This document shows positions 2,564 through 63,105 of a DNA stretch of 64,000 nt, in pieces. The stretch lies in NCBI GenBank assembly GCA_964016885.1, contig OZ024744.1, positions 98,394,001-98,458,000 on the forward strand, read 5' to 3'. Under the pieces are notes generated by a model. It worked only from the letters and a program-made list of their open reading frames with translations. It searched no databases and was not told where the DNA came from. The number at the start of each line of letters is the position of its first letter. The first letter of the stretch is position 1. This stretch comes from Eledone cirrhosa. Its lineage: Eukaryota. A program made the translations under genes and the position numbers.

Positions 2564-2878
2564 ACGTTATTATTGTTAATTTTACTGATGTAGTATTAAC
2601 TTGGATATTTACCATGCGACCCTCAGTTCCTACCTCACAATTTCCCTCCCCCACCCCCACACACCACCATAGCCTATTCGACCAATCAAACCTAGCATGC
2701 CATTTCCACTGCTGCTGCTGCTGCTACTACCTGCCTAACTAACTCTCTCCTCCTCTGGCGCATCCCAACACACCCTGCCATTACCCCACCACCACTGTCC
2801 TTCTAGCCCTCAATTTTCCCACCGTTAGGGATGGATGAGCTGGGAATACACGAGCAACTCTGAATCAATAGATGAAAT

Positions 2879-5800
2879 ATGAATCTGCGAGCTACCAAGC
2901 ACCCACGTGAAGCGCCAACCCAGAGACCCTCCCCTACGAGTGTCGACAAATGCCCAAAACTCCGAGTTGGTACCATCAATGTAGGCTCAATGAAAGGAAG
3001 AGCAGGAGAAATCGTAGAAATGCTAGAGCGAAAGGAAGTTGATGTATGCTGTGTGCAAGAGACTAGATGGAGAGGAGGGTCTGCTAGAGTCCTTGTAGGA
3101 AAAAGCCAGTGCTACAAATTTTTCTGGGTGGGAAATGACGATGGGATGGGTGGTGTAGGTATACTATTAGCTGACAAGTGGGTAGATAAAGTAATCTCAG
3201 TGTACAGGGTAAATGCAAGAATCATTAAACTCAGACTAGTCCTGAATAAGACAATTACCACAATAATATCAGCTTACGCACCCCAATCGGGGCTGCCAGA
3301 CGAACTTAAGGATAGGTTTTACGAGTCCCTAATACACACTACTGCTCTAACAGACGACAAGGACTTCCTAATCATTGCAGGAGATTTTAACGGACACGTA
3401 GGTAAACACTGCGACGGCTTCAATAGAGTACATGGAGGCCATGGAGTTGGCACAAGGAATGAGGAAGGATTCAGACTTCTAGAATTCTGCGACGCCAATG
3501 ACATGTCGATATGTAACACAAACTTTAAAAAACCCGACAACCACCTGATCACCTATAGATCAGGGGAGCACTCTAGTCAGTTAGATTTTATCCTCATCAG
3601 AGGACGTGACAGATGGACGGTCGTAAACACAAAAGCCTTCCCTAGTGAGGAATGTACATCCCAACATAGCTTAGTTGTCAGCGACCTCACGGTCAGAACT
3701 AGACGAGCCCTGAAACAGAGGCCAACCTGGAGAAGAAAGATCTGGAAGCTGAAAGTCCCCTCAACCAGTAACAGATTTAAAGATATTTTACTCAACGCCT
3801 ACGACAGTAAAGAAGAACAGATAGAGACATTTAACGTAGAAGAGAACTGGGAGTTCCTAAAAAATAACTTACTAGAGGCGACGGATGAGGTTTGTGGCTG
3901 GAGTAAGACCTCAAGCAGGAGGAGAGTGACTTGGTGGTGGAACAATAAGGTAGATGAAGCAGTCAAGGCCAAGAGACAGGCATGGAAAGAATGGAAGAAC
4001 GGGGGGAGCAGGGTACATTACATAGAGACCAAGAGGGAAGCTAGGCGACAAGTATACTTAGCTAGGAGGGAAGCAGAGGATAGAAAATTCAAGCATGTTT
4101 TACAACGTGAGGACCAGAAACAGGAGGTATTCAAGATTGCGAGGCAGTGTGTCAGAGATAGTTGTGATGTCATTGGAGAGAAGTGTATCCGGAATGATAA
4201 AGGTGAGCTTGCCCTCACAAGTGCTGAGAAGAAAGATGCATGGAAGAGTCATTATGATAGATTACTAAATGAGGAGAATGCATGGGAAGAAGAGACCCTA
4301 CCCCACGTAGACCCTATAGAGGGACCAGCAGTACAAGTCAGCGGCAGCGTAGTAAGTAAGGCAATCAGAGATATGAAGATAGGGAAGGCAACCGGTCCAT
4401 CGGGTATAGCTGCCGAGATGCTGAAGGCATCTGGGTCTGTAGGTCACACTATAACCACACGTATCGTTAACCAGGTAATACTAGAGGGGGCCATACCAAA
4501 AGATTGGTGCAGTAGCATCATTGTCAACTGCTACAAAGGTAAAGGCGATGCACTAGATAGAGGAAACTATAGAGGTATAAAGTTGATGGACCAGGTCATG
4601 AAAGTAACAGAAAGAGTTATAGCACAGCTGATTAGGGACCGGGTGAATATAGACGAGATGCAATTTGGGTTTGTTCCAGGGAAAGGCACCACTGATGCGC
4701 TCTTCCTTGTGAGGCAATTACAGGAAAAGTACCTAGCTAAAAGTAAGCCACTCTACTTGGCATTTGTCGACCTTGAGAAAGCCTTTGACAGAGTTCCACG
4801 TGCAGTAATCTGGTGGGCTCTTAGAAAACTAGGAGTAGATGAATGGCTTGTGAAAGCGGTACAAGCCATGTATAGGGGAGCAGTCAGCAAAGTTAGGATT
4901 GGCAATGAGTATAGCGAGGAATTTAGCGTACAGGTTGGGGTCCACCAGGGCTCTGTTCTTAGCCCTCTCCTGTTCATCATAGTCCTGCAGGCAATAACGG
5001 AGGAGTTTAAGACCGGATGCCCATGGGAACTCCTGTATGCTGATGACCTCGCACTCATAGCTGAATCTATGGTAGAACTAGAGAATAAATTCCAAACCTG
5101 GAAGCAGGGACTAGAGAGAAAGGGCCTCAAAGTCAACATGACAAAGACTAAGGTCCTTATAAGTAGACGAGAAAACAGAACCCAGATCCCCTCAGGGAAA
5201 TGGCCTTGCTCAGTATGTAGGAAAGGTGTAGGTAGGAACTCCATTCTTTGCCCCAAATGCAAACAATGGGTACACAAGAGATGTAGCGGGATCTCAGGAA
5301 GCTTAATTAAGAATGTAGGATTCACATGCAGCAGCTGTGCTGAAACAGCAAGCAAACAGCCACAGGAAACAAGTACCACCAATCTCTGGGAGGGCCCTGT
5401 AGAAACAGTAGACAGCTTCTGCTACCTAGGTGACCGAATTAGCAACGGAGGTGGGTGCTCAGAAAGTACAATAACTAGGGTAAGAACGGGATGGAAGAAG
5501 TTTAGGGAACTACTACCACTGCTAGCTGCAAAAGGCTTCTCCCTCAGAATGAAAGGCAGACTGTATGATGCGTGTATCCGAACAGCGATGTTGCATGGTA
5601 GTGAGACCTGGGCGCTGAAGGTGGAAGACTTACGTAGATTAGAGAGAAACGAAGCCTGCATGCTCCGATGGATGTGTAACAGTAATATACGTGAACGACA
5701 AAGCATAAATGAATTGAGAGAGAGACTGAGCATAAGAGGAATCAAATGCTGCGTGCAGGAGAGGCGGTTACGCTGGTATGGACATGTGATGCGTATGAAG

Positions 5801-5998
5801 GATGACAGCTGCATAAAAAGGTGCAGAGCACTAGAAGTTGATGGAAACCGTGGAGTGGGGAGACCCAAGATGACTTGGGATGAGGTGATAAAAGCCGACC
5901 TTACCCAACTACACCTCTCAAAGTCAATGACACACGACCGTGACTTCTGGCGTCACGCAGTAATACAGGGTACCCGACCTCCCATGGGTACATGCTGA
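2879..5998 (+). CDS. RTE-clade non-LTR retrotransposon protein: APE endonuclease + reverse transcriptase + PHD-like zinc finger (1039 aa, uninterrupted)
   Basis: APE motifs GTINV, CCVQET, GDFNGH, QLDFIL, SQH; RT motifs QFGFVPGKGTTD, FVDLEKAFD, GVHQGSVLSPLLF, YADDL; C-terminal RLRWYGHVMR...GRPKMTW. Confidence 0.97.
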   Translation: MNLRATKHPREAPTQRPSPTSVDKCPKLRVGTINVGSMKGRAGEIVEMLERKEVDVCCVQETRWRGGSARVLVGKSQCYKFFWVGNDDGMGGVGILLADKWVDKVISVYRVNARIIKLRLVLNKTITTIISAYAPQSGLPDELKDRFYESLIHTTALTDDKDFLIIAGDFNGHVGKHCDGFNRVHGGHGVGTRNEEGFRLLEFCDANDMSICNTNFKKPDNHLITYRSGEHSSQLDFILIRGRDRWTVVNTKAFPSEECTSQHSLVVSDLTVRTRRALKQRPTWRRKIWKLKVPSTSNRFKDILLNAYDSKEEQIETFNVEENWEFLKNNLLEATDEVCGWSKTSSRRRVTWWWNNKVDEAVKAKRQAWKEWKNGGSRVHYIETKREARRQVYLARREAEDRKFKHVLQREDQKQEVFKIARQCVRDSCDVIGEKCIRNDKGELALTSAEKKDAWKSHYDRLLNEENAWEEETLPHVDPIEGPAVQVSGSVVSKAIRDMKIGKATGPSGIAAEMLKASGSVGHTITTRIVNQVILEGAIPKDWCSSIIVNCYKGKGDALDRGNYRGIKLMDQVMKVTERVIAQLIRDRVNIDEMQFGFVPGKGTTDALFLVRQLQEKYLAKSKPLYLAFVDLEKAFDRVPRAVIWWALRKLGVDEWLVKAVQAMYRGAVSKVRIGNEYSEEFSVQVGVHQGSVLSPLLFIIVLQAITEEFKTGCPWELLYADDLALIAESMVELENKFQTWKQGLERKGLKVNMTKTKVLISRRENRTQIPSGKWPCSVCRKGVGRNSILCPKCKQWVHKRCSGISGSLIKNVGFTCSSCAETASKQPQETSTTNLWEGPVETVDSFCYLGDRISNGGGCSESTITRVRTGWKKFRELLPLLAAKGFSLRMKGRLYDACIRTAMLHGSETWALKVEDLRRLERNEACMLRWMCNSNIRERQSINELRERLSIRGIKCCVQERRLRWYGHVMRMKDDSCIKRCRALEVDGNRGVGRPKMTWDEVIKADLTQLHLSKSMTHDRDFWRHAVIQGTRPPMGTC

Positions 5999-11541: not shown

Positions 11542-13832
11542 TATATTTCTTTATTTGCCACAAGGGCGCAAAAGATGGGGACAAATACAATTGGGGAGTT
11601 TACATACAATGCGTGTAAAAATGTATAACAAAAATAATGAATAAAACAAACGAAATCCCCAATTGGGGGGAGGGAGGCGTTACAAATGGGTTGCACACAC
11701 CCCGAAAAAAATGTACAACCCTCATCTCCAGGAGCACGAAGAGCGAGCACTCCTTTCCTCTCTTCCTCGACCTACAGGCTTATATAAAAAGAAAGCCCAA
11801 CCACTCGGGCCATCCTTGCGACATTCACCCACCTTTCCTAAAATTTGCTGGGGTGCAGCTCCTCTCTCTCCACTCTGATTCTTCTTCTAAAATGATATTT
11901 GAAGAAGCGAACTAGTTGTTCGCCGGAGAGAAAGGTGTCTGACCTCAGCCCTTTCAGTCTCGTCCACCATATAACCTCTTTTACCATAGCGATTACACAG
12001 AGGAAAACCGCCTCTCCTTCGTTTTTGAAGGAAGGTGGCGGTTTGATCGTAATAATGGACTCCGTGGTCAACCGGATTTGTCCCACCCGCGACAGTAGTC
12101 GTTCTGCGTAGCTCCACAGGTCGGCAACGTCCGGGCAGTGTACGAATGCGTGCGCGACGGTTTCCTCGTCCCGCACGAATCACGAACAGATCTTTTTCGA
12201 GGGATCCCTGCCCGGGCGCCCGTGTCTGTAGAGCTTGTCTCGAACGGGTAGAGCTCCTCGGGAGCACTGACAGGCTAGGGACTTTTGGAAGTGGTCCATC
12301 GGTCCCGGGCGGAAGGTACTACCGAACAGACTGGCCTGTTTGTCTTCCTCTACGGCTAGAGTTTCTCCGAGAGTGTCGTCGCACTTGTTGCGGTCTAACC
12401 CTCTATAGAATTACGAGGTGGAGTCTCCACTGATCACCGGATCCTTTTGCCAGAGGACTGTGAGCGCCTGAGCACATTCAATGTGCCAGTCACCCATTTT
12501 TCTCGGTCTTTGCTTGACCCAGGACTGCGGCTCGGTCAGCGAGACGAGTCGCGGGAAGGCTCGCCTCACGAAAGGGGCCCACACCGGTTGTTCGGTGAGG
12601 AATACATGGAGGTACCGCAGCCTGAGCGCGTGTTTGCGCATCATCAGCCACGGCATCCCCAGCCCCCCGTTTGAAGGGTGTTGACAGCAGATGGATCTTC
12701 TCACCAAAGGAGCCCGCTTCTTCCAAAGGTATTGGAAGAGCGCGCGCTCCATTTTGGTGAACGTTTTACTTGGACAAGGCACGACGGTCAAGCGGTAGTA
12801 GTTGACGGACACTATGAAAGCGTTCGCCACCTCCGCTCGACATTTCAAAGATAGTTTGCACTCGGCCCACTTCTGGGCGAGCGCAAACATCTTGGTCGTC
12901 ACCTCGTTCCAGTTTTTCGCCACCTGGAAGTCCAGTCCGAACCAGACCCCGAGCAGCTTCACCGGTCCCTAGGTCCAGCGTCCGACGACGCCGTCGGAAG
13001 GCATCGGTTTGCCTCTCCACGATCCGAGTTGCAAACCGACGGACTTGTCCCGGTTCAGCTTCGTTCCTGTGAACCTCTCGTATTCCTTCAGTAAGGTGCC
13101 GACCGCCCCGATTTGCGAGGTGCTCGACACCATTACGGTGACGTCGTCGGCGTAGGCCGACGCCGCTTTTCGCAGTCTTGGTTCCAACGGGATGCCCTGC
13201 AGTAGCTCCAACCTCCGCAGTAGTGGTTCTAGAGTCAGTACGTACACAAGGGAGGAGAGAGGGCATCCCTGTCGAATGGATCGCGTGATTTGGAACGGCT
13301 CCGAGAGGTAGCCATTCACCTTGACCCTTGAGCAGATATTGTTGCTGTGCATGGCAGCAATTCAGCCCCTGAACACGGGTCCGAAGCCTGTCGCCGCATC
13401 CAGGTAACGATGGTCGACTCTATCGAATGCCTTAGACTGATCCAAATTTATCAGTGCCCCACGGAAGCCGGGTTTACACCAACCCTCTCTACGATGTATC
13501 GCATGAGGTGGAGGTTGTCGTGTATGGACCTGGTCGGGATTGCGCATGTCTGCGCTTCTCCCACCAGGTTTTCGACGACAAGCGCCAGCCTCTTTGCTAA
13601 CACCTTGGCCAAAATCTGTAACTCTGTGTTTAGTAGATTTATGGGCCTGAAGTTATTAATGTCGCCCCCTTTGTTCTCGTCCTTCTTGACCAGCATGACT
13701 ACTACCCCCTTGGTCACAGAACTGGGAATTCTCCTGTTCTGCTGCCAGTTGCAGTAGACCGCTTCGAGGAGACCGGAGAACAAGTCCGGCATTGCTACGT
13801 AAAATTCGTAGGGTAGACCGTCGAGCCCTGGC
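11542..13832 (-). mobile_element. Tx1/L1-clade LINE, 5'-truncated ORF2 (RT + C-terminal zinc-binding region), frameshifted
   Basis: SPGLDGLPYEFY, NFRPINLLN, DQSKAFDRVDH, RQGCPLS, AYADD, 'ETVAHAFVHC'; AATAAA near the 3' end at ~11550. Confidence 0.93.
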
Positions 13833-13899
13833 GAAGAAATACCAACGATAATCAGCAGACTACTGATGAAGGACATTCTTGTTTCTCGGTCTATTTTTA

Positions 13900-13974
<75 letters not shown>

Positions 13975-13997
13975 GAGGTTACACAACAGTTAGTTCA

Positions 13998-14047
13998 CCA
14001 TACCGAGAACAATTGTTTCACCTTAGCGGATCCTCAGCTCGTAATGG
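13998..14047 (-). ncRNA. Type I hammerhead ribozyme motif (minimal, PLE-type)
   Basis: Minus strand ccau-ua-cgag CUGAGGA u-cc-gcuaa-gg-u GAA A-caauug-U U cucg-gu-augg: stem I 4 bp + 2x2 loop + 4 bp, palindromic stem III, GUU site. Confidence 0.7.
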
Positions 14048-14112
14048 GCATGGTTATACGTCCCATGGACTGAGTGCTCTACCACTACGGATATTACCTT
14101 CCAGTGTTCTAC

Positions 14113-14139
<27 letters not shown>

Positions 14140-14150
<11 letters not shown>

Positions 14151-14355
14151 ATATTAAATAAATGGAAACTATATTTATAAAGCCATATTTATTCTATTAT
14201 ATATATTTCAAGGGTACCAAAATGTTGGTACGCTATCATCAGATAAAATATGAAGTGTGTTTTATAAATTTTGACATAACCAAGAAAAATATACCTTAAC
14301 GGTTCAAGTTTTCCTGTCGAGTGTTCTGAATCAGTTATAAACATTTATATTTGTA
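14140..14355. repeat. Penelope-type pseudo-LTR fragment (related sequence at ~34040-34145) with a degenerate hammerhead-like motif
   Basis: Sequence shared with 34040-34145; minus-strand CTGATGA-stem(gtaccaa/ttggtac)-GAAA at ~14203-14243. Confidence 0.55.
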
Positions 14356-15954
14356 TATATATATATTTATTTATTTATTTATGATGATGATCATCAATCA
14401 TCACTATTTAACGTCCATTTTCTATGCTGTCATAGGTTAGATGGGTTGTCATGTCATGAGACAAGTCAGGCCAGGTGACCTTGTCTTGCTCATATGGATC
14501 TGTATTTTGGCTTGGTGTCTGTGGATGCATTGCCTTTCCTAACGACAACCACATGGACTGGGTGCTATATATTGTGGCACCCGAAGAACTCCCTACAACA
14601 TGATAGACATGTTACTTTTTTTTTTATCATGGTACCAACATGTCCAGCTAACCTGGTGGACCTGGTGTTTTTGTTTTTGTGGCACCAGCACTATCACTGT
14701 ACAGGCTTATCTGGGTAGCACTTTGTCATGACAACAACAGTATGGGAGCTCAGGTGAAGAACATGTCCAGCTTTCCATCCATGAATGTATATTTTGGACA
14801 GGTGTGGAAGGTGGTTCTGGTGGTGTGTAGTGGAGTACATCCTGATCATTGTAAACCATCTATATCCCACACTCTCCTGAGAAGGCAGGTTGTCATGCTC
14901 TGAAACAAAGGCTGGACAGAAGAACATGTCTAGTTCATACATTCCATATTCTTCGTTTTTCCATGTTGGCATGGGTTGGACAGGGAGTGAAGTGCACCCA
15001 TTTTTGTATGTTGACATGGGTGAGGGAGGGGATTGAATGTAAGGGCTACCCCTTTTATAGAGAAATGGAGTGGGGCAAGCGTGGAGGGGAGGAACTGTCT
15101 TTGTTGGAAGTGAATGAAGGAGGAATAAGGTAGAGGGAGTATACAGGATGGGGTTGGGGGAAGTGAGTGAGTGAGGTCTAAGATGGAATATTCAGCTGGA
15201 TGAGTATTAAGATGGGTGGGTGGGAGGGGGGGAATTATAGGGTGGGAGATTGGTGCAGACTAATGTCCTCTAAAGGTTTGTTTCATCCTATACACGTGGA
15301 AAGGAGGATATTCTGCAATACAACATAACACCAGAGAACTTGATCCTGCATCCTCACTTTGGAGAGGTTTAATCAACTGTCATCAACCATATGCATCATA
15401 TGGTGGTGGTGGTGGTGGTGGTGAGGAGGAGGAGGAGGGGGAGGAGGAGGAGGGAGGGGGAGTATCTAAACTATTTATAATTTTTTTCTCTTTGATGGTG
15501 TCTCATAAAATGTTCAGCCTTGTGTTCTGTCCAAGATATTCTCAAATTCTTCTATAAACCCACATCTTAAAAATCTCTATGAGGTGGGGCTGAAAAGTTC
15601 TTGGCTTTGGGTAAAAAAAAAAAAAATACAGGAGGATCATTGGTGCAGACTTGTGTGCTCTGTATTTGTTTCATCCTATGCACATGGTCGTGATGTAGTG
15701 GTGGTGGTGGTAGTGGTAGTGATGATGTGTGGGTGTTTGTGCTTGAATAAGTGTGTGCAAATGCTTGTGTTGTATGTGTGAGTGTGTATATATAGATATA
15801 TATATATCTGTGTGTGTGTCTATATATATATATATATGTGTGTGTATGTATAAAACTCACTTAATTACATGCAATACAACTGGGTGTATATATATATATA
15901 TATATACTTCCCTACAGGACATAAATACAGACCTATCTTTAATAGATACAGAGT

Positions 15955-16480
15955 AAAACTTAGATATTCCTGTGCTAAAAATATGAAAGCCCACATCATG
16001 ACCAGCACCAAGAGCTCTTCCCCGACCAGATGCTCTTGCAGAAGGCCACAATCATGCCCTCTACTACAACAGTGTAACACACCTACAGTCGTCTATGAGG
16101 CTGAAGTTACAACCACTCGGACAAATCAACAGCAGGAGGTCAAAACATATGTAAGTATGTTGGAGGGTTGGTTTAAAGAATGCTTCCTTAACAATCAGAC
16201 AACCTTTAAACGCTCTGATAAGTGATCGTCCACGAAGCTGGCAAGCCATGTATGATCACTCAAAATGCAGACATGAATTTTTCCAATGAAAAGTTTTAGT
16301 CAAATCCAGGCCATACAAAAAAGGAGCAGTGTCCTGTAAGTTGTGTATTGATGAAAGAGGGAATATCTTGCGGAGCTTACGTAACAGCACCTGCCTTAAC
16401 ACGGCAGCTGATTATTTTTAATTGCTGCTCCCACACTGCAAAGTTTCTATTATATAACTGGAAGGACCCAAGATAACCAG
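15955..16480 (+). pseudogene. Penelope-like element 3' fragment (Cys linker + GIY-YIG endonuclease)
   Basis: 'KLRYSCAKNMKAHI...CSCRRPQSCPLLQQCNTPTVVYEAEV...TYVSMLEGWFKE'. Confidence 0.85.
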
Positions 16481-16885
16481 AAATTTAACCTGGATTCAAC
16501 TAACACAAATGAAAGGTATCCCCCTTTCAACAGTCTAATTTGAGTTGTCTCCCTTGTCATCAAACTACTGACATTTGCCACACAGTCAGCTCATATATAT
16601 ATATATATATGTCTGTTCTTACCACTACCATGCATGGATTGAAAATCCCTCCAATGAAACACGTCCTTGAATATGGTTATGCACCCTCCACACACACACA
16701 TACACACATAAGTGTTAATTCCTATTTTATCATCATAAAATAAAAATTATATCAAATTTTGGTATAGGGCTACCAATCTTATGGGGAAGGAGGGAAAGTC
16801 GATTATATCAAACCCTAGTAAGTAACTGGTACTTTATTTTATCGACCCTGGAAGAATGAAAGGCAACGGACAGTTATCGCCTATT

Positions 16886-18402: not shown

Positions 18403-20500
18403 CAGTGGTCGCCAACCTTTCTAAAACCGAGGAACCCTCTAAATATTTTGAATTCTTCACGGAACCTATACAATACAAAACTTTTCAAAAAAATAATAAA
18501 GTATTTATTTATTTTAGTGTTTCATGCGTGTGTATGTAATCGAACACAATGGCTTTTCTGCTGCTGCGCCTCATCAGTGAGTTTAGAAAATCGAGGTTCA
18601 ACACTAGTTAATGCCAGTCTCATACACTCGTCAATTGCTGACAGTTTATTCCTCTTCTTTGTGCAGATTTCCACCAACTGCGAAAACCCTTTTTCGCACA
18701 AGTAGCTAGATGGGAATAAAGTCAAATACTTCAATGCAAGTTGGCTGATTTCATTAAACTCCCCAATCAAGAATAAGTCGATCCATAGTTCTTTCTTTCT
18801 GCTTTCGAATATCACTTTCAGGTCTTCGTTTGAATTCAAATCCATCAACTGATGTAAGCATTGGGCAGGTAGTAAATTTTTACAATTTCCAGCGTCATTT
18901 TCTGACACTAACTGCTCGATCTCGGTGAACGGGTTTTTTATCCATAAATTTCCGCTAACAATATATTTTTCCATCAAGTCAAAATAATCTGAAAAACCTG
19001 TGGAAGAATAATCTTCTTTAGATTGCTGGAGTCAAAATTTTCTCTCTTTTTAAGCTCTATTTCAAGGTTTGAAAGTAATTGTCCGATTCAATTCTTTTTA
19101 TAAAGATGTTTAATTTTGATTGAAAATATGTAATAAAATTGATTGAAGTAAAAATATCTGCATTGTTACCCTGAAGACACTTATTTAGTTTGTTCAGTTC
19201 AGTTCACCAAAAATGTCTACTAAATAATCGAGTTGCAAATTCCATTCATTGGTTTCTAATACACTTGCTCTTTCATCATTCTGTTTTTTTAGAAAAACTA
19301 TTATTTCTTCTCTCAGTTCAAAACTCTCTTCATAGCATCCCCAAAAGACAGCCAACGCACATCATTGTTCAATAACAATCTATTATAATTACTTCTAGAA
19401 GATTCACAAATAGATTCAAACATTCTAGAATTTTTTGCTCTTGCATGGATCAAATTGATAATTTTGACAATGTCTTTCAGCTGGCCATTTAATATTTGAG
19501 CATTTCTGTCTTTGAATTTTTTTTAACACAAAACCTCTCGATGAATCATACAATGGTTTGAAATACAATTTGGGGTCTGTTCTTTAATTTTTGCAATCAA
19601 ACCAGAATTTTTACCAGTCATTGCAGCTGCTCCATCTGTTGTTATTGAAGTCAACTTGCTCCAAGATACACCATTTAAAAAAAAATACTCTTCAATTTTA
19701 TTGAATATATCTTGACCTTTAGTTGTGATGTCTAATGTCAGACAAAACAAATACTCTTCTACTAATTCTTTTTTATCAAGGTCTACAAACCGTACATAGC
19801 AAATTAATTGAGCCTTGTTTTTAATATCCGTAGTTTCGTCCACTTGCAGTCCAAAACATGGGCTTTTCTTTAGTGCAGTTAGTATCTGATTTTCTATATC
19901 AGAAGAAATATCAATTATCCCTCTTTTAACGGTATTTGCTGACAATGGTAACTGGCTTAATTTTTCTTTGTCCTTAATACTGCAGCTTTCAAAAAGATTC
20001 TCTGTAGCAATTTTTATACTTGGTAGAATTAACTGTTCTCCTAATGTAAATGGTTTCTTGTTTTTACCAATCAAATGTGAAATCTCAAAAGATGTTCTTG
20101 TTAAAGCTTTATTTCTATCTGACTTTTTACAAAACAAGTCCATACATATTAGCTTGTGATTTTTTTATGTTGTTTTTCAGCGAAGTAAAGTATTCCAGTG
20201 ACTTGTTTTTATCATTGGTGTGATTAGTATCAATGTGTCTTTTAGGTTTTGCAGGATTTAAACAGCTATTTAATAGAACTTTTGAACATAGCAAACACAT
20301 GGGCTGATCTGGTGTATCTTTTTTAGTGTCAGCTTTTTGAAATCTATATCTAACATAATCATCACACCACTGTCTAACCTTACTGCTGGTATCTAACTTC
20401 AGCTTCTTTGCAGTAGACATCATATCAACGTTATTTATCTACAGTTAACTAGAAGAAATTTTTTTCAGAGTCCAGCACTTCCGGCATATACTACTTTAGG
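18403..20500 (-). mobile_element. hAT DNA transposon (Buster/Charlie/ZBED5-SCAND3-like), degenerate transposase; only one TIR found
   Basis: TIR-like cagtggtcgccaacc at 18403; BED-like 'PMCLLCSKVL...KRHIDTNH', 'KKPFTLGEQLILP', 'FGLQVDETTD', 'TTDGAAAM', 'HCMIHRE', dimerisation 'FPSSYLCEKGFS'. Confidence 0.92.
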
Positions 20501-26427: not shown

Positions 26428-27330
26428 TCAATGGATCTCTTTTCGTCCATTGACAGCCACTGTGAAATGTTTGGGGGTGTGCGAAAGCACACGAAAAGGT
26501 CCATTATAAGGTGACGTAAGAGGTCCCTTGACGGAATCATTCCGTATGAAAATGTGTGTCCATGTAGAGATGTCCGATGGGACAGCAGAAGAAATAGACT
26601 GGTCACGAGGGTTCATCGGTGGAAGATCCGAGAAATACGAACGAATTCTGGTGACATATGATGCTGGGTCAAGATGTGATGAATCCACTGGTGCTAACAT
26701 TTGTCCAGGAAGAGACAAGGTGGTACCATAAAGAAGTTCAGCAGAAGAAAAACCTAAATCTGTCTTAATGGCAGAACAACAACTAAGAAGCACGATTGGC
26801 AAAAATTCAGTCCAACGTTGCAGATCAGGAGTAGCGCGAAGTGCAGCTTTCAACTGTCTATGAAACCTCTCGACCATTCCATTGGAGGCTGGGTGATAGC
26901 TGGTCGTATGAATGTGATGAGCACCCAAGAGTCGTGATATTTCACAAAATAAGGAAGCTTCAAATTGGCGTCCATGATCCGTAGTTATTTTAGTAGGAAC
27001 ACCGAAACGAGCAATCCAATTGGAAATGAAGGCTCGCGCAATGGACTCTGCTGTTATGTCCATGAGGGGTATGGCTTCAGGCTACCGAGAGAAACGATCG
27101 ATACAAGTCAATATGTATGTGAACCCACGACTAACGGGCCATGGACCAACAATATCCATGTGTATATGACGGAAACGTGCGTCTGGCGGGCTGAATTTCC
27201 TAAGAGGAGCGCGGATATGCCGATAAATCTTAGAGCGCTGACACTTCAAGCAAGAACGTGCCCAAACTGGTGATTAAACGACATATTAGACCAGAAGAAT
27301 CAAGCCGTAATAAGCTTCACCATGGTAGCT
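26428..27330 (-). pseudogene. Gypsy integrase (disrupted)
   Basis: 'FGVPTKITTDHGRQFE', 'HTTSYHPASNGMVERFHRQLK', GPY/F-like 'PYNGPFRVL'. Confidence 0.92.
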
Positions 27331-28657
27331 ATGCCAAGGTGTGACAAGGAATAAGTGCATCAAAAACGGTACGCTGATGACAATCCGGAACAAACGGTCT
27401 GGGTGAACCAGTAGAAATATCACAAAGAATTTTTCCTTCAGCAGATGGAAGAGGTAAATAATCAAACTTACAGCAGGAAAGTTGGGTAGAAGAAATGTTC
27501 AACGAATCCAAAGTAGTTTGGTCAGTTGCTATGGCAACTAAATCGATATGTGCAGGAGACGCAAGAGAACACACAGAAAGTCGAGATAGTGCATCCGCAG
27601 GTATGGTGGCAGTTCCAGCTATATGACGAATGTCACTGGTATACTGGGAGATGAGATCCAGATGCCTATACGCTCTCGGAGAGTACCTGTCGGATTTGGT
27701 GTGAAGAGCGAATGTGAGTGGTTTATGGTCTGTGAATACCGTGAATTCCCGACCTTCAAGAAGATGGTGGAAATGTCTCACAGCAAGATAAATCGCTAGA
27801 AGCTCTCTGTCAAAAGTACTGTATCGTTGCTCTGTTGGTTTTAGTTGGCATGAGAAAAATGCCAGTGGTTGAACCTGGTGATCGGTCGCATCTTGCAAAA
27901 CTGCATCAACAGATAAGGAAAGTCTCGCATTTGCAACAGGATGGGCAAGGAAGGAAACTTTGGCTAGCTCAGACTTGATGGATTCAAAAGACTGCAAGGC
28001 ATTGGCAGAAAGTAAAATAGGAGCATCTTTCTTTTTTGCAGCCTTTAAAAACTGTGTCAAGGGGAATAACTTGTCCGCACAGTTAGGAATAAAGCGACGA
28101 TAAAAGTTAATTAATCCCAAGAAATGGCGTAATTGTTTCAAGGATGTTGGTGGTGCGATATGCTGAATCGCTTCTACCTTAGATGGCAAAGGTCGAATGC
28201 CTTCTGAATCTATAAGGTGTCCAAGGAATTCCAGTGAATCTGTCCCAAACACACATTTAGCTGGGTTGATTCTGACTTGGTACGATTGGAGACGTTGAAA
28301 TAACTGAGGTAGATGTTGATGATGATGCTCAGCTGAATCACTGGCTATTAGGAGATCATCAATGTAAGCAAACACGAAATCCAATCCACGCGTGACTTCA
28401 TCGATAAAACACTGGAACGTACTAGAAGCATTCCGCAAACCAAAAGGCATGGACAGAAATTCAAACGAACCAAAAGGGGTGGTCACAGCTGTTTTTGGTA
28501 TGTCTTCTGGATGCACGGGTATTTGATGGTAAGCGCGTACCAGGTCTATTTTAGAAAATATCTTGCATCCATGCAGAACAGATGAAAAATCCTCTAAATT
28601 TGGTAAAGGATAACGATCAGGTGTAGTGATGGCATTAAGTCGTCTATAATCTCCCAC
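27329..28657 (-). pseudogene. Gypsy reverse transcriptase + RNase H
   Basis: 'DYRRLNAIT', 'FSKIDLVRAYHQI', 'MPFGLRNA', 'YIDDLL', 'YSTFDRELLAIY', 'TDHKPL', 'ADALSR'. Confidence 0.95.
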
Positions 28658-28705
28658 AGGTCTAAAATCTGCCTCACCCTTACGAGCTAAATGAAGCGGA
28701 GATGC

Positions 28706-29330
28706 TCACGGGCTGGTTGACGGTCGTATAAGACCAGGCTGAAGCATGTGATCGAACTCATCCCTGGCTTTCTTTAACCTGTCTGGAGCCAGCCTACGTG
28801 GACAAGAAAAAACAGGCGGAGCAGTTGTTGTAATAAAATGTCGAGTCGAGTGGACTACTTGGTTCGGTTTAAATGAAATGTCAGTTAACTCAGGAAACGA
28901 GGCAAGAAGTGAATGAAACTGGTTTCCAGAAGCAGCTATAAAACACGCGGGACTTATGACAGTAGGGGTAGAACCATGAGCAGGCGTAGATAAGGATGTG
29001 GTACCATCCACAAGTTTCTGTCTCCTGACATCTACTAACAGTGAATAGTGGTGTAAAAAATCAGCACCGACAATAGGAGGAGGTACGTCCGCTACGACGA
29101 AAATCCATTTGAAATCTCGACGCAAAGCTAGGTCCAATGATAAAGATATTTGTCCATAAGTTTTTATAGGAGACTGGTTTACTGCATACAAGGAAATACC
29201 GGAAAAATTTGGCTTGGTAGAGCTGAACCGAAGGGGCCAAATACTGCAGCTAGATCCTGTGTAGACCATAAATGATTTGTTTGAAGCTCGATCTCTGATA
29301 AAGAAAGCACGATAAGGAGAATTAATGAGG
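28706..29330 (-). pseudogene. Gypsy aspartic protease region (catalytic DTG appears as YTG)
   Basis: 'FMVYTGSSCSIWP...PIVGADFLHHYSLLVD'. Confidence 0.85.
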
Positions 29331-29361
29331 GAGAGGTCTGCTGTGCCCAGACTCTCCAATT

Positions 29362-30143
29362 TTAGTTTTCCGAGGTCTCGAAAGAGCAGGGCTGAATACA
29401 ATGATTCGCCTTTTCACGAAAACGCACGTGATACCAACACAAAGACGAGTTGTTGGCGGGGAGGTTGGTGCGACGAAGAAGAGAAAGAGACCGATTCCAT
29501 GAACGCCACCTGGATGGTGTTCGCTCCCGACACAGTTTAGCCATTTGACGAGTTAACGCGTCAATGGCTCTCAGTATAGAGTCCTCACGAGATGAAACAG
29601 GCTGTTTTAAAGGTAGAAGAAGCAATGAGTGGATCTGCCGAAGTAGGCACTCGAGAAAATTCCATTATGCGATCCGTCGAGGCTGCAATTTGGTCCAGAG
29701 AACTGGTGTCGACCATATTTGCCAATATGGTCTGCACATTTGTTGGCAAACGGGAGAAAAATAATTGTTTCACGAAAGAGTTGTCCTCTGCTGTTGAGTC
29801 GCTCAGTTCCCAGATGTGCCATAAAAACTGAGACAGGGTTCTATCTTCCAGGTTTTCCTCCTCCAACAAGGAACGAAATTTGCTCTCAGACGAACGGCTG
29901 TTCTGTCTGAGCACTTCAGCCTTTAGTGTTTCATAAGTTATGCCTTGTGGGGGGATCTGTGATTATGTCTTTCACTGACGTGGCGAGCGATGCAGGAATT
30001 CCGCTTATGAGCACATGTAACCTTTGTTGTGCTGCTTGAACGCCGTGGACAGCAAAATACGAATCTAGTTGTGCAAACCACAACTTTGCATCACCTGAAT
30101 ACGTCGGTAGCGAAGAATTGCTCATTATGAATGTAGTAGCCAC
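29362..30143 (-). pseudogene. Gypsy gag (frameshifted)
   Basis: 'LPTYSGDAKLWFAQLDSYF', 'LEDRTLSQFL', 'LCWYHVRF...CIQPC'. Confidence 0.85.
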
Positions 30144-33394: not shown

Positions 33395-33810
33395 TTGTTA
33401 TACTTTGGGAGGGTCATGTTGCCAATAAGAAACACACGCACCAGTTGCTTTCACTCCAATTTATTATAAATTAAATTTATAAATTTCCGGTTGGTTGGTT
33501 GGTTCCATAACCAGACGGTTGTTCATATATTGTTAAAGTTCTTTCGTCACACATTCTGTGACCTCTTCAGTGACTGGGGATTCTTTTCTTTGTTTTGTGC
33601 CTCTCCTACGCCATTTTGTTTTTTCAAAACAAGATGGCATTGGACAGAACAAAGGAGAGGCACAAAACAAAGAAAAGAATCCCCAGTTACATAAGAGGTC
33701 ACAGAATGTGTGACGAAAGAACTTTGACAATATGTGAACAACCGTCCGGTTGTGGAACCAACCAACCAACCGGAAATTTATAAATTCTTAAATTTATAAA
33801 TTTAATTTAT
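33395..33810. repeat. Inverted pair of Penelope-type pseudo-LTR segments, each with a hammerhead-like motif
   Basis: 33470-33605 is the reverse complement of ~33657-33790. Confidence 0.8.
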
Positions 33811-40242: not shown

Positions 40243-41533
40243 CGAGGGGGGATCAAAAAGTTCGCGGAATTTTTCAGAAAATAATCTATTTTTCAAAAAA
40301 TATGATTTACCTTCAATTTATTTTTCTACATAGTTGCCATCCAGGTCAATACACTTCACAAGGCGATGCTTCCAGCTTCGTAAGCCATCTCTAAAGAAAG
40401 TTGAAGGCCTTGTTCGAAGCCATGTATTGGCAGTGTTTTTAGCTTCTTCAACACCACTAAAACGGGTTCCTTTTAGCATTTCTTTGAGTTTTGGAAAGAG
40501 GAAAAAGTCTGATGGGACTAAATCTGGACTATAAAGTGGGCGAGGAAGCACTTCCCATCGAAATTCTCGAAGAACTTTTTTTGCAACCCGCGCTGGTGCA
40601 TTGTCATGGTGAAACAAGATCCCACCATGAAGTTTCCCTTTTCGTTTCTTGACTAATGCCTCTTTCAGCTTCCTTAAAACATTTGCATAGTAAGCTCCTG
40701 TCACAGTTCTTTGACCTTCAAAATAATCTATAAGTATCACCCCATCTGAATCCCAGAAAATGGTGGCCATCACTTTTTTTATCCGACTTTTGAGATTTGA
40801 ACTTGATTGGCCCTGATGATCCACGTGGAAGCCACTGTTTTAACTGCTGTTTGGATTCAGGATCATACTGGTAGATCCAGGTTTCATCTCCGGTGATGAT
40901 TCTGGTCAGGAAATGCTCTTCATCAACTTCAATTTTGTTTAATATCACCAAAGACAGATCACCTCGAAGAATCAGCTGATCAGGGCGCAACGCTTTTGGG
41001 ACCCATCGCACTGAAAGCTTGCTTAGTCCCAAATTATCATGCAGAATTGAATTTGCCGAACCATATGAAATGTCTAGGGACTTAGCTAACTGATTAACTG
41101 TTATTCTTCGATCTTCTTCAATTAAAGTCTGAGCAGCCTCAACGTTTTGGTCATGTTTTGATGTTCCTAGTCTTCCACTGTGATGGTCGTCTCTCCCTTG
41201 TTTGAATCGCTGAATCCACTTGTAGACAGCAGTTTTCTTTGGAGGAGTAGTACCGTAAACTTTAACTAAAGCCTCCATAATCTGTGTCCCTTTCCATTTG
41301 AGTTTCACCAGAAACTTGATATTCGATCTTATAAAATAACTATTTTCCATTGTTCCAAAAAGAGGTTTTTTAAAGAGTGTCAGTACTGTACAATAGTCTG
41401 CGCATAACTGACTGCAAGTGACTAATAGCAAGGTAAACACCCAGTGACACTGTTCTGACATGTTTAATATTGTTTTAACCTGATTTTTTTTCTTGCTACG
41501 ATAAAATTCCGCGAACCTTTTGATCCCCCCTCA
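40243..41533 (-). mobile_element. Full-length mariner (DD34D-type) transposon; transposase split by a frameshift
   Basis: TIRs cgaggggggatcaaaaagttcgcggaattt / aaattccgcgaacctttt...cccctca, TA flanks; WVPKAL, TGDETW, HHDNAP, YSPDLVPSDFFLF. Confidence 0.96.
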
Positions 41534-41579: not shown

Positions 41580-42115
41580 TATAATTGAATATAAAAGAGA
41601 GATAAACGCAGATATATACATATATGTGTTCAAATCGTAAGGGACCAGATTCGCTAGGCTGAAAAAAATACTAACTATGAACAATAGGGTTTGCCAGACT
41701 CAATTTAAAATAATAAATCAAGAAAATAAATACAAACTGATATTGGGGCAACTGCCAGACACCCAGACAGCTGTTTCGCAATTTTAGTGAAAGGGAATTA
41801 CCAATTCTTTTGCTCATCAGTGGGTTAAAATTAGTAAACCCTTCACTTCTAAGTATTTCAAAAGACTGAATAGTGTGCGTATATAAAATAACGCACATGG
41901 CATCAGAACCTAGCGTGTCTCATAAATGTATACTACTAAAAATAGCAGCCAAGTTTATTCGACATTTAAATTAGCTCTACATATTGAAGGAGCCGAATAT
42001 ATCAAAGGTATATATTGAGTTAGAAACTCAAAATAGTCTCTTACAATTAAATAGCTCAAGGAAAGAGATTTTTTCCAAGCCGTGTAGTATAATTGAATAT
42101 AAAAGAGAGATAAAC
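41580..42115 (-). mobile_element. ~508-bp unit with 28-bp terminal direct repeats carrying a hammerhead ribozyme (PLE pseudo-LTR / retrozyme-like)
   Basis: tataattgaatataaaagagagataaac at 41580 and 42088; hammerhead inside. Confidence 0.7.
41761..41825 (-). ncRNA. Type I hammerhead ribozyme with canonical core and GUC cleavage triplet
   Basis: accca CUGAUGA GCAA-(long loop)-UUGC GAA A-cagcug-U C ugggu: 5-bp stem I, G10.1-C11.1 stem II, palindromic stem III. Confidence 0.85.
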
Positions 42116-44522: not shown

Positions 44523-45102
44523 GGATGTATGTATGGTTTTTTTTTTTGCCTTTTGTCCTGCGGGGTGTCCAAAATCCCCCTCCTCACTAAGTAAACTTGG
44601 TGGGGTTGCTGGTTTAGTCGCCGACGACTCGACCATGCGACAGGTTGTACTGGGTTACATGTTACCAGTAGCACTCAAGAGTGACCCGACATAAGGCGGA
44701 AGAACTCATAAGAGTCAACGGCTATCCAAAAGTGTGTAAATATGTATATACACATGTACATTCCTCACTTTAAAAATATCTTCACGCACAGGCACGATAG
44801 AATTAATTAATAATTATTAATATTGGTATATCGTGCAATGGCCATACTCGATAACGAGGGGGTAGCCATCATGCATGCATTTATGTATGTATGTATGTAT
44901 ATATGTATGATTGAATGAATGAAATAAAAATAGCGTAGACATTACAATACAATAGGAGGGAACATAATAATAGTACCACTGATGATGTTGCCGATGTGCA
45001 ACGAAAGAACTTTGATATAAATATATATATATATTTATATCTGTATTTTTAACTGCTGGTCAATCAATGATAAACATTGATTGCCAAATGAATTAACTAT
45101 GG

Positions 45103-62654: not shown

Positions 62655-63105
62655 GCTTTCCTGATGATTTCCTTCGAATGAAACAGTTCTAGTCTTGTAG
62701 AAGCCATTTCTATATTAAATATTTATACTCTGCTATATATTGCGTACCTTACTTACTGTGGTTACCCTCGATTGAACCCGGGATACACACACATGGGTGT
62801 GTGTGTATATATATATACACACACAAACGTGTGTGTGTGTGTGCGTGTGTATATATATACACACACGTTTATGTATTTGTTTTGCAAGATTGTTGATGTG
62901 AATATATTTGGGGACGGACATGTTGCCAGTATTGCCAATAAAAATATTAAGACCAGAAAGAAGAGGAGGCACAAAGGAGAACAGATGGTCATTGAGGAGG
63001 TCACAGAATGTGTGGTGAAAGAACTTTGAATAACAAATGAATGACAAGCAATAAAGATAAAGTGAAAATCATATGATGCATGTGTTTCTTCATTGGCAAT
63101 ACAGC
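62655..63105. repeat. Penelope-type pseudo-LTR fragments with two degenerate hammerhead-like motifs
   Basis: 62988-63030 matches 33686-33728; CTGATGA-ttc/gaa-GAAA at 62661-62683; 62870-62910 resembles 48060-48095. Confidence 0.55.

Follow-up and report, generated by a model that had tools for sequence, protein, structure and literature searches.

Results and discussion

A short ribozyme-bearing piece between (TA)n tracts

A hammerhead ribozyme with no open reading frame around it, set in a (TA)n tract of the Eledone cirrhosa genome, raises the question of whether so small a piece is mobile in its own right or is the remnant of something larger. The preliminary description of the 64,000-nucleotide stretch analysed here (the window, to which all positions refer) allowed either a self-contained mobile unit of about 150 bp, with an A-box-like sequence ahead of the ribozyme, or a solo pLTR piece. 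The solo piece is the part that stood: the 146 bp in question are most probably an insertion, inverted and truncated in both arms, that derives from the 3' end of a Penelope-like element (PLE) of the Hydra clade. Alone, the locus is one dead fragment among thousands and has no importance.

The piece consists of two arms joined 5' to 5' at CG, and both of its 3' ends face (TA)n (Table 1). Arm 1 runs from about 55 nt before the predicted ribozyme cut to a short 3' end, 36 nt past the cut, and 88 of its 89 nt are identical to many genomic copies. Arm 2 lies in the opposite orientation and extends to a long 3' end, 102 nt beyond the cut. Between the arms, about 9 nt of template are missing.

Table 1. 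Features of the two-armed insertion and its hammerhead ribozyme
Feature	Position	Strand	Remarks
(TA)n target, left flank	13903-13971		most family copies end in (TA)n
Arm 1	13972-14060	minus	3' end of the element, truncated 5': last part of 3' UTR, hammerhead, short 3' end
Type I minimal hammerhead	13997-14054	minus	read from the sequence; cleavage predicted
Distal stem I	14054-14048/14003-13997	minus	7 bp including one G-U
Stem I bulge	14047-14042	minus	6 nt, on the 5' strand
Proximal stem I	14041-14038/14007-14004	minus	CGAG/CUCG, 4 bp
Core CUGAGGA	14037-14031	minus
Stem II	14030-14020	minus	2 bp, CC/GG; 5-nt loop; U14030 and U14020 at its flanks
GAAA	14019-14016	minus
Stem III	14016-14009	minus	perfect 8-nt palindrome ACAAUUGU; predicted dimer interface
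GUU site	between 14008 and 14007	minus	predicted cut
Inversion junction	14059-14060		2-nt CG microhomology common to both arms
Arm 2	about 14059-14117	plus	final 57 nt of the tail (66 nt in all), up to the long 3' end
Duplicated 15-mer of the tail	14073-14087 and 14103-14117	plus	each copy ends in an ACCAC motif
(TA)n target, right flank	14116-14145

Contigs from public runs (one sample) diverge from the window exactly at the junction and continue natively on either side. Genome-wide, the junction pattern has 5 matches (2 for a backwards control) and its native continuation 6,399. The same junction, with the same two-arm shape, recurs at three other loci (L003, L004 and L009), and the junctions of the remaining look-alike copies differ from that of the window. 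In native copies the A-box-like stretch lies downstream of the ribozyme and antisense to it. From the native continuation and the junction evidence, the supposed A box is thus the element's own 3' tail in reverse complement, put ahead of the ribozyme by inversion. The duplication noticed there is real, and its ACCAC motif precedes both 3' ends. The antisense of the tail resembles a tRNA D-loop.

No B box was found within 1 mismatch on either strand, no tRNA was found by ARAGORN in the window or by Rfam, and there is no tandem array at the locus. A tRNA-derived SINE begins, in the sense of transcription, with A and B boxes; this is not the arrangement seen here, and the orientation is also wrong for it. 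Nor is the arrangement that of tandem non-coding units, with a ribozyme in each, amplified as a unit. Non-LTR retrozymes (bioRxiv 10.64898/2026.07.22.740005) share with the window piece a non-coding stretch and a type I hammerhead related to those of PLE pLTRs; however, they are tandem units each with a ribozyme, whereas the window piece is single and truncated and comes from a family with an ORF.

The hammerhead ribozyme

Most of the minus-strand hammerhead is as first described: the CUGAGGA...GAAA core, a 2-bp stem II closed by U-U, a self-complementary stem III and the GUU site are all present in the setting of (TA)n. The exception is stem I, in which the CGAG/CUCG helix held good and the 2x2 internal loop did not, its place being taken by the bulge and distal helix of Table 1. 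The core and closure of a minimal type I hammerhead are there (CUGANGA...GAAA, U16.1-H17, both ends closed by stem I), as is the self-complementary stem III of the dimer form. The assignment to the minimal Penelope type with a palindromic stem III is also borne out by the anatomy and sequence of the parent family, set out below.

Rfam reported no hammerhead family for the stretch up to E=10. A strict descriptor (core, stem II of at least 2 bp, perfectly palindromic stem III and stem I of at least 4 bp), drawn up post hoc with the motif already known, found three sites in the window, including this one; 200 dinucleotide shuffles gave a mean of 0.01 and none reached three. The whole 146 nt fold no better than shuffles (z -0.46), and the ribozyme alone has z -1.56.

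The computed energy of the ACAAUUGU self-duplex is -6.4 kcal/mol, and closure of stem III within one molecule costs 1.4 kcal/mol. Cutting is predicted solely for dimers held by the palindromic stem III, for example in tandem transcripts of full-length copies, and the lone hammerhead in the window is probably inert. It is inherited cargo of the pLTR. Its 2-bp stem II, U·U closure and unlooped 8-nt palindrome make it a compact object on which to test cleavage assisted by a dimer or by protein. Lunse et al. are said to have described small PLE hammerheads with short stem II variants and dimer cleavage, and may already list a 2-bp U·U variant.

Like the minimal PLE hammerheads of Cervera and de la Pena 2014 (PMC4209133), which come mostly as dispersed single copies from truncated PLEs, the window ribozyme is of type I, is palindromic at 15.2-16.2 and is predicted to act as a dimer. 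In contrast to the consensus given there, it has neither the G10.1-C11.1 closing pair, which is replaced by U·U, nor a long helix II, and its long stem I carries a 6-nt bulge. File S2 of Craig et al. 2021 (PMC8557442) lists 25 families of the Hydra clade; by eye, U...U surrounds stem II in 14 of the 25, and the cleavage site carries U in 10 of the 25. Closure by U·U is thus a variant of the clade, and neither it nor the GUU site is unusual there. Stem II is of 3 bp or more in the listed families and of 2 bp here, and a stem III formed by an 8-nt palindrome without a loop base is slightly more minimal than theirs.

The parent family

A search of the source genome (3.0 Gb) gave 69 matches from the 40 candidates scored, of 1,136; most of these matches align to the query in two oppositely oriented pieces. 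In those loci a GIY-YIG coding region and a 3' UTR precede the ribozyme, and the reverse complement of the window's "upstream" part follows it. In 39 of the 40 copies chosen solely by the GIY-YIG coding region (of which L040 and L063 are possibly one duplicated locus), the ribozyme segment lies downstream, and all 11 core positions are intact in 31 of the 39. By eye, 20 of the 40 have the long 3' end, 17 the short one and 3 another.

Copies that keep the 5' UTR show the 66-nt tail running on into it, from which it follows that the unit is a partial tandem. The layout is a pLTR with hammerhead, tail, 5' UTR, RT-EN ORF, 3' UTR, hammerhead and an optional tail. Two direct ribozymes are present in 9 of 20 full-length candidates, at a ribozyme-to-ribozyme length of 2.54-2.66 kb; the distance from the predicted cut to the ATG is about 250 nt. 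The absence of an ORF is therefore true of the window copy and not of its family, which has an RT-GIY-YIG ORF. No intact version was found in the 22 copies examined, the longest open piece being 619 aa.

The family protein has RT motifs, RWR, SDKT, a CxCX5C linker (CSCRKPEAC), CxxC (CGLC) and CxH (CPH). No Pfam domain was named in it and a PDB search was empty; its Atlas neighbours, at 0.94-0.98, have HTH_animal, RVT_1 and GIY-YIG domains. With the Hydra clade (PMC8557442) it shares a single ORF with RT and then a C-terminal GIY-YIG in less than 3 kb (the frames are broken in all 22 copies), DKT in place of DKG, the CxCX5C linker, and CxxC and CxH around conserved E and N as in the published alignment rows. 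The clade is also marked by an endonuclease lacking the CCHH motif, a trait on which the family protein was judged by eye against the same rows. Also shared are insertion into (TA)n, a pLTR hammerhead that recurs at the 3' end, partial tandems, an inverted 5'-truncated copy and a tail that is often at one end only. RWR is a K-to-R variant of the RWK of the clade, and the tail is 66 nt whereas that of Hydra elements is 30-40. Hydra-1_Obim, the nearest listed family, shares 25 of its first 44 residues with the family protein (by eye); its ribozyme sequence differs.

On these sequence features the family is classed as a Hydra-clade PLE of 2.55 kb with RT and C-terminal GIY-YIG. It is not among the families in the available lists of PMC8557442, and it may already stand in the octopus repeat annotation PMC13282606. 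An exact 30-nt ribozyme pattern has 3,964 matches genome-wide and a 29-nt 5' UTR pattern has 87, indicating that 5' truncation is the rule.

Some individual copies show further features. In L161, L166, L167, L169, L171, L175, L176 and L178-L180 the ATG aligned with Hydra-1_Obim is preceded by about 66 open codons in the frame of the ORF; this open stretch starts inside the tail, and may be due to chance, an N-terminal extension or part of a spliced 5' end. L034, a single case with a core deletion, ends 1-2 nt past the predicted cut into (TA)n. The flanks of L023, L039, L040 and L056 hold another, ribozyme-like repeat (U, short stem, GUUAA loop, U, GAAA), in which A replaces U at core position 4.

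Ribozyme cutting and the 5' ends of copies

Whether ribozyme cutting sets the 5' end of the copied RNA can be read from the 5' ends of the insertions. For 89 loci with a 5' UTR (sets of 30 and 60, L084 being left out as its anchor is missing), the whole upstream ribozyme core is retained in 50. Four of the 89 end within 5 nt of the predicted cut, with 2.2 expected (P = 0.19). Full-length copies starting at the cut, a possibility prompted by L045 and L071, were rejected on this count. Since 5' ends are not piled up at the cut, ribozyme cutting leaves no genomic footprint, in line with uncleaved RNA as the main substrate, as reported for a Poseidon element (PMC11167929). The family shows no sign that cutting defines the 5' end of the copied RNA.

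Pairing of long and short 3' ends

The two 3' ends of the window copy are those of the family at large, and they are paired by rule. From the 3,964 exact matches to the ribozyme 30-mer, 60 loci were chosen in order of position along one contig. A two-armed insertion that could be classified was present at 37 of the 60, and in 35 of the 37 (31 by script, 4 by eye) one arm has the long end and the other the short end. Two are probably long-long and none is short-short; were the ends independent, such an excess of mixed pairs would have P of about 5e-9. Five further loci, either two-armed or with an internal inversion, resisted classification, and the rest of the 60 are single-armed. The short end is the sole 3' end of many single-armed copies.

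In directly joined pairs the inner ends are at most 15 nt apart in 14 of 25, against 7.7 after permutation (P = 0.0009). There is no rank correlation between them (rho 0.09, P = 0.66), and which arm extends further varies among pairs. The arms overlap on the template in all 25 directly joined pairs tested. The window copy, with non-overlapping arms, is atypical; L216 (by eye) is a further non-overlapping case.

Inverted PLE arms of which one bears a tail have already been published (PMC8557442, PMC3846280), and inverted termini are shown in the available part of PMC2377424, without end counts. No count of end pairing in genomic PLE insertions was found in the literature searched. The 35 of 37 loci put numbers on how PLEs acquire inverted arms and a one-sided tail.

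Origin of the two arms

One long and one short end per insertion point to two primings, one on each target strand, at two fixed sites. Insertion is likely to proceed by priming of both (TA)n strands at these sites, judging from the pattern of ends. The RT would prime both strands of the cut (TA)n at start sites 66 nt apart on uncleaved RNA, and two short cDNA arms would then be joined, in the window copy at the CG microhomology; both the paired priming and the microhomology joining are steps that we infer. A stronger version, which we consider less likely than not, is that paired priming is obligatory in Hydra-clade PLEs: one RNP may take both (TA)n ends and assign them different starts, 36 and 102 nt past the cut, with uncleaved RNA as template, and the palindromic stem III may serve to hold template RNAs together and not to make the ends. 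If true, it would explain why PLEs have inverted arms and also why their tail is one-sided, and the family offers thousands of young insertions on which it could be tested.

The closest biochemical parallel is the Anolis element Poseidon PAc (Frangieh et al. 2024, PMC11167929), in which two internal RT starts define the tail, the target is AT-rich, the template is uncleaved RNA and both strands are extended. PAc belongs to another clade, however, and its ORF starts inside the ribozyme, whereas the ATG of the window family lies well past it. In vitro the strands of the PAc target showed no difference in start site, and the available part of that paper gives no count of end pairing in genomic insertions.

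If a single RNA is the template, the overlap of the arms can be explained only given strand displacement. Overlap would need no displacement if two RNAs, possibly held by the palindromic stem III, were each copied once from a different start by a protein dimer. A dimer is predicted for the PAc protein (PMC11167929), and the palindrome has apparently been conserved through sequence change in the lineage. In addition, 12 of the 16 long arms unconstrained by the way the loci were selected stop 24-75 nt upstream of the cut. However, the short arms would be brief in any case, with about 0.02 stops per nt counted from the start, and the pile-up of stops may therefore reflect no more than coupling. 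Catalytic mutants of the ribozyme left PAc insertion unchanged in vitro (PMC11167929), a result that bears on catalysis only and not on dimerisation. The use of two RNAs would by itself leave the different starts in 35 of 37 pairs unexplained, and we regard this explanation as unlikely.

Slightly less probable still is a fold-back, in which, once one arm has been primed at the target, the growing cDNA folds back or changes template, to itself or to antisense RNA, and is copied to a fixed point to give the second arm. Self-priming on an antisense template was proposed in PMC3846280 from palindromes at inverted junctions, and the overlap of arms in every joined pair is as this process would leave it, as are inner ends that often nearly coincide (-302/-293, -67/-68). 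In many pairs, though, one arm outruns the other by hundreds of bases. The short end is also the only 3' end of many single-armed copies, and both ends correspond to RT starts in vitro in the Poseidon element (PMC11167929). The window copy itself cannot have been made by fold-back, as its arms share no sequence. For the family, the pattern of arms and ends is compatible with a single RNA and strand displacement, with two RNAs and with fold-back.

Least probable by a wide distance is a self-contained, non-autonomous unit of about 150 bp, retrozyme- or SINE-like and driven by the A-box-like promoter, since the junction shared with three loci and the D-loop likeness are outweighed by the rarity of that junction beside its native continuations, by the differing junctions of other look-alikes, by the lack of B box, tRNA and tandem array, and by a native stretch that is antisense to and downstream of the ribozyme.

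Ribozyme variation and a sister family

Younger subfamilies of the family vary at position 7, in loop II and in the stem I bulge, with the core unchanged. In young copies the core is mutated at 13 of 429 positions and the 3' UTR at 119 of 2257 (P = 0.051), so that the core is marginally lower; constraint this slight is expected for dead copies.

An older sister family, also of Hydra type and with copies 74-83% alike, is represented in the window by a decayed GIY-YIG end at 15910-16660 (plus strand). This family was traced through the window fragment 15910-16590, and 20 of 40 matches were taken. It has the same two 3' ends and has kept U·U and the 2-bp stem II. Of 18 readable cores, 17 have U at position 3, and U3-A8, a variant reported from Schistosoma (PMC4209133), occurs in 13 (by eye).

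Stem III has changed in the sister family: three copies have the exact palindrome ACACGTGT (by eye), and most others appear to be CpG-decayed forms of ACACGTGT or of a second palindrome, ACGCGCGT, which was deduced from decayed copies, no intact copy having been read. A stem III that is altered and yet apparently still palindromic fits dimers. These sequences provide fair evidence that selection has acted on a dimer-forming ribozyme in the lineage.

Between the two start sites lies a hairpin with a constant stem and a variable loop, across the subfamilies and the sister family. When the surroundings of both start sites were folded by minimum free energy in 6 copies, no structure was consistent among them, the tail hairpin alone being supported. 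The antisense of the sister tail likewise resembles a tRNA D-loop.

Neighbouring elements in the window

No host gene was recognised among the 16 window frames scanned. A second hammerhead, of another family, adjoins the insertion at 14146-14300 (minus strand), with the core CUGAUGA at 14242. It has a long stem II flanked by U·U, a palindromic stem III and a stem I of 7-8 bp, and it ends in the same (TA)n. Neighbours of this kind abut the family tail in L010 and L031 as well. A heterodimer of the two adjacent ribozymes was considered and rejected as unfavourable (+1.7 kcal/mol).

The third site found by the strict descriptor is at 41820 (minus strand); its stem III is palindromic and its cleavage site is GUC. 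Looser hammerhead candidates are at 33526-33570 (minus), 44979-45019 (plus) and 62661-62699 (plus).

Directly left of the (TA)n tract is a 5'-truncated, frame-broken LINE with RVT_1 matches (11838-13900, minus strand). A LINE open frame of 1,040 aa at 2876-5998 (plus strand) encodes an AP endonuclease and RT, with a PHD finger downstream of the RT. Pol pieces like those of LTR retrotransposons (RT, RNase H, integrase), a piece of a hAT-like transposase and a mariner-like transposase were found at 26428-29413, 18522-20164 and 40318-41530, respectively, all on the minus strand.
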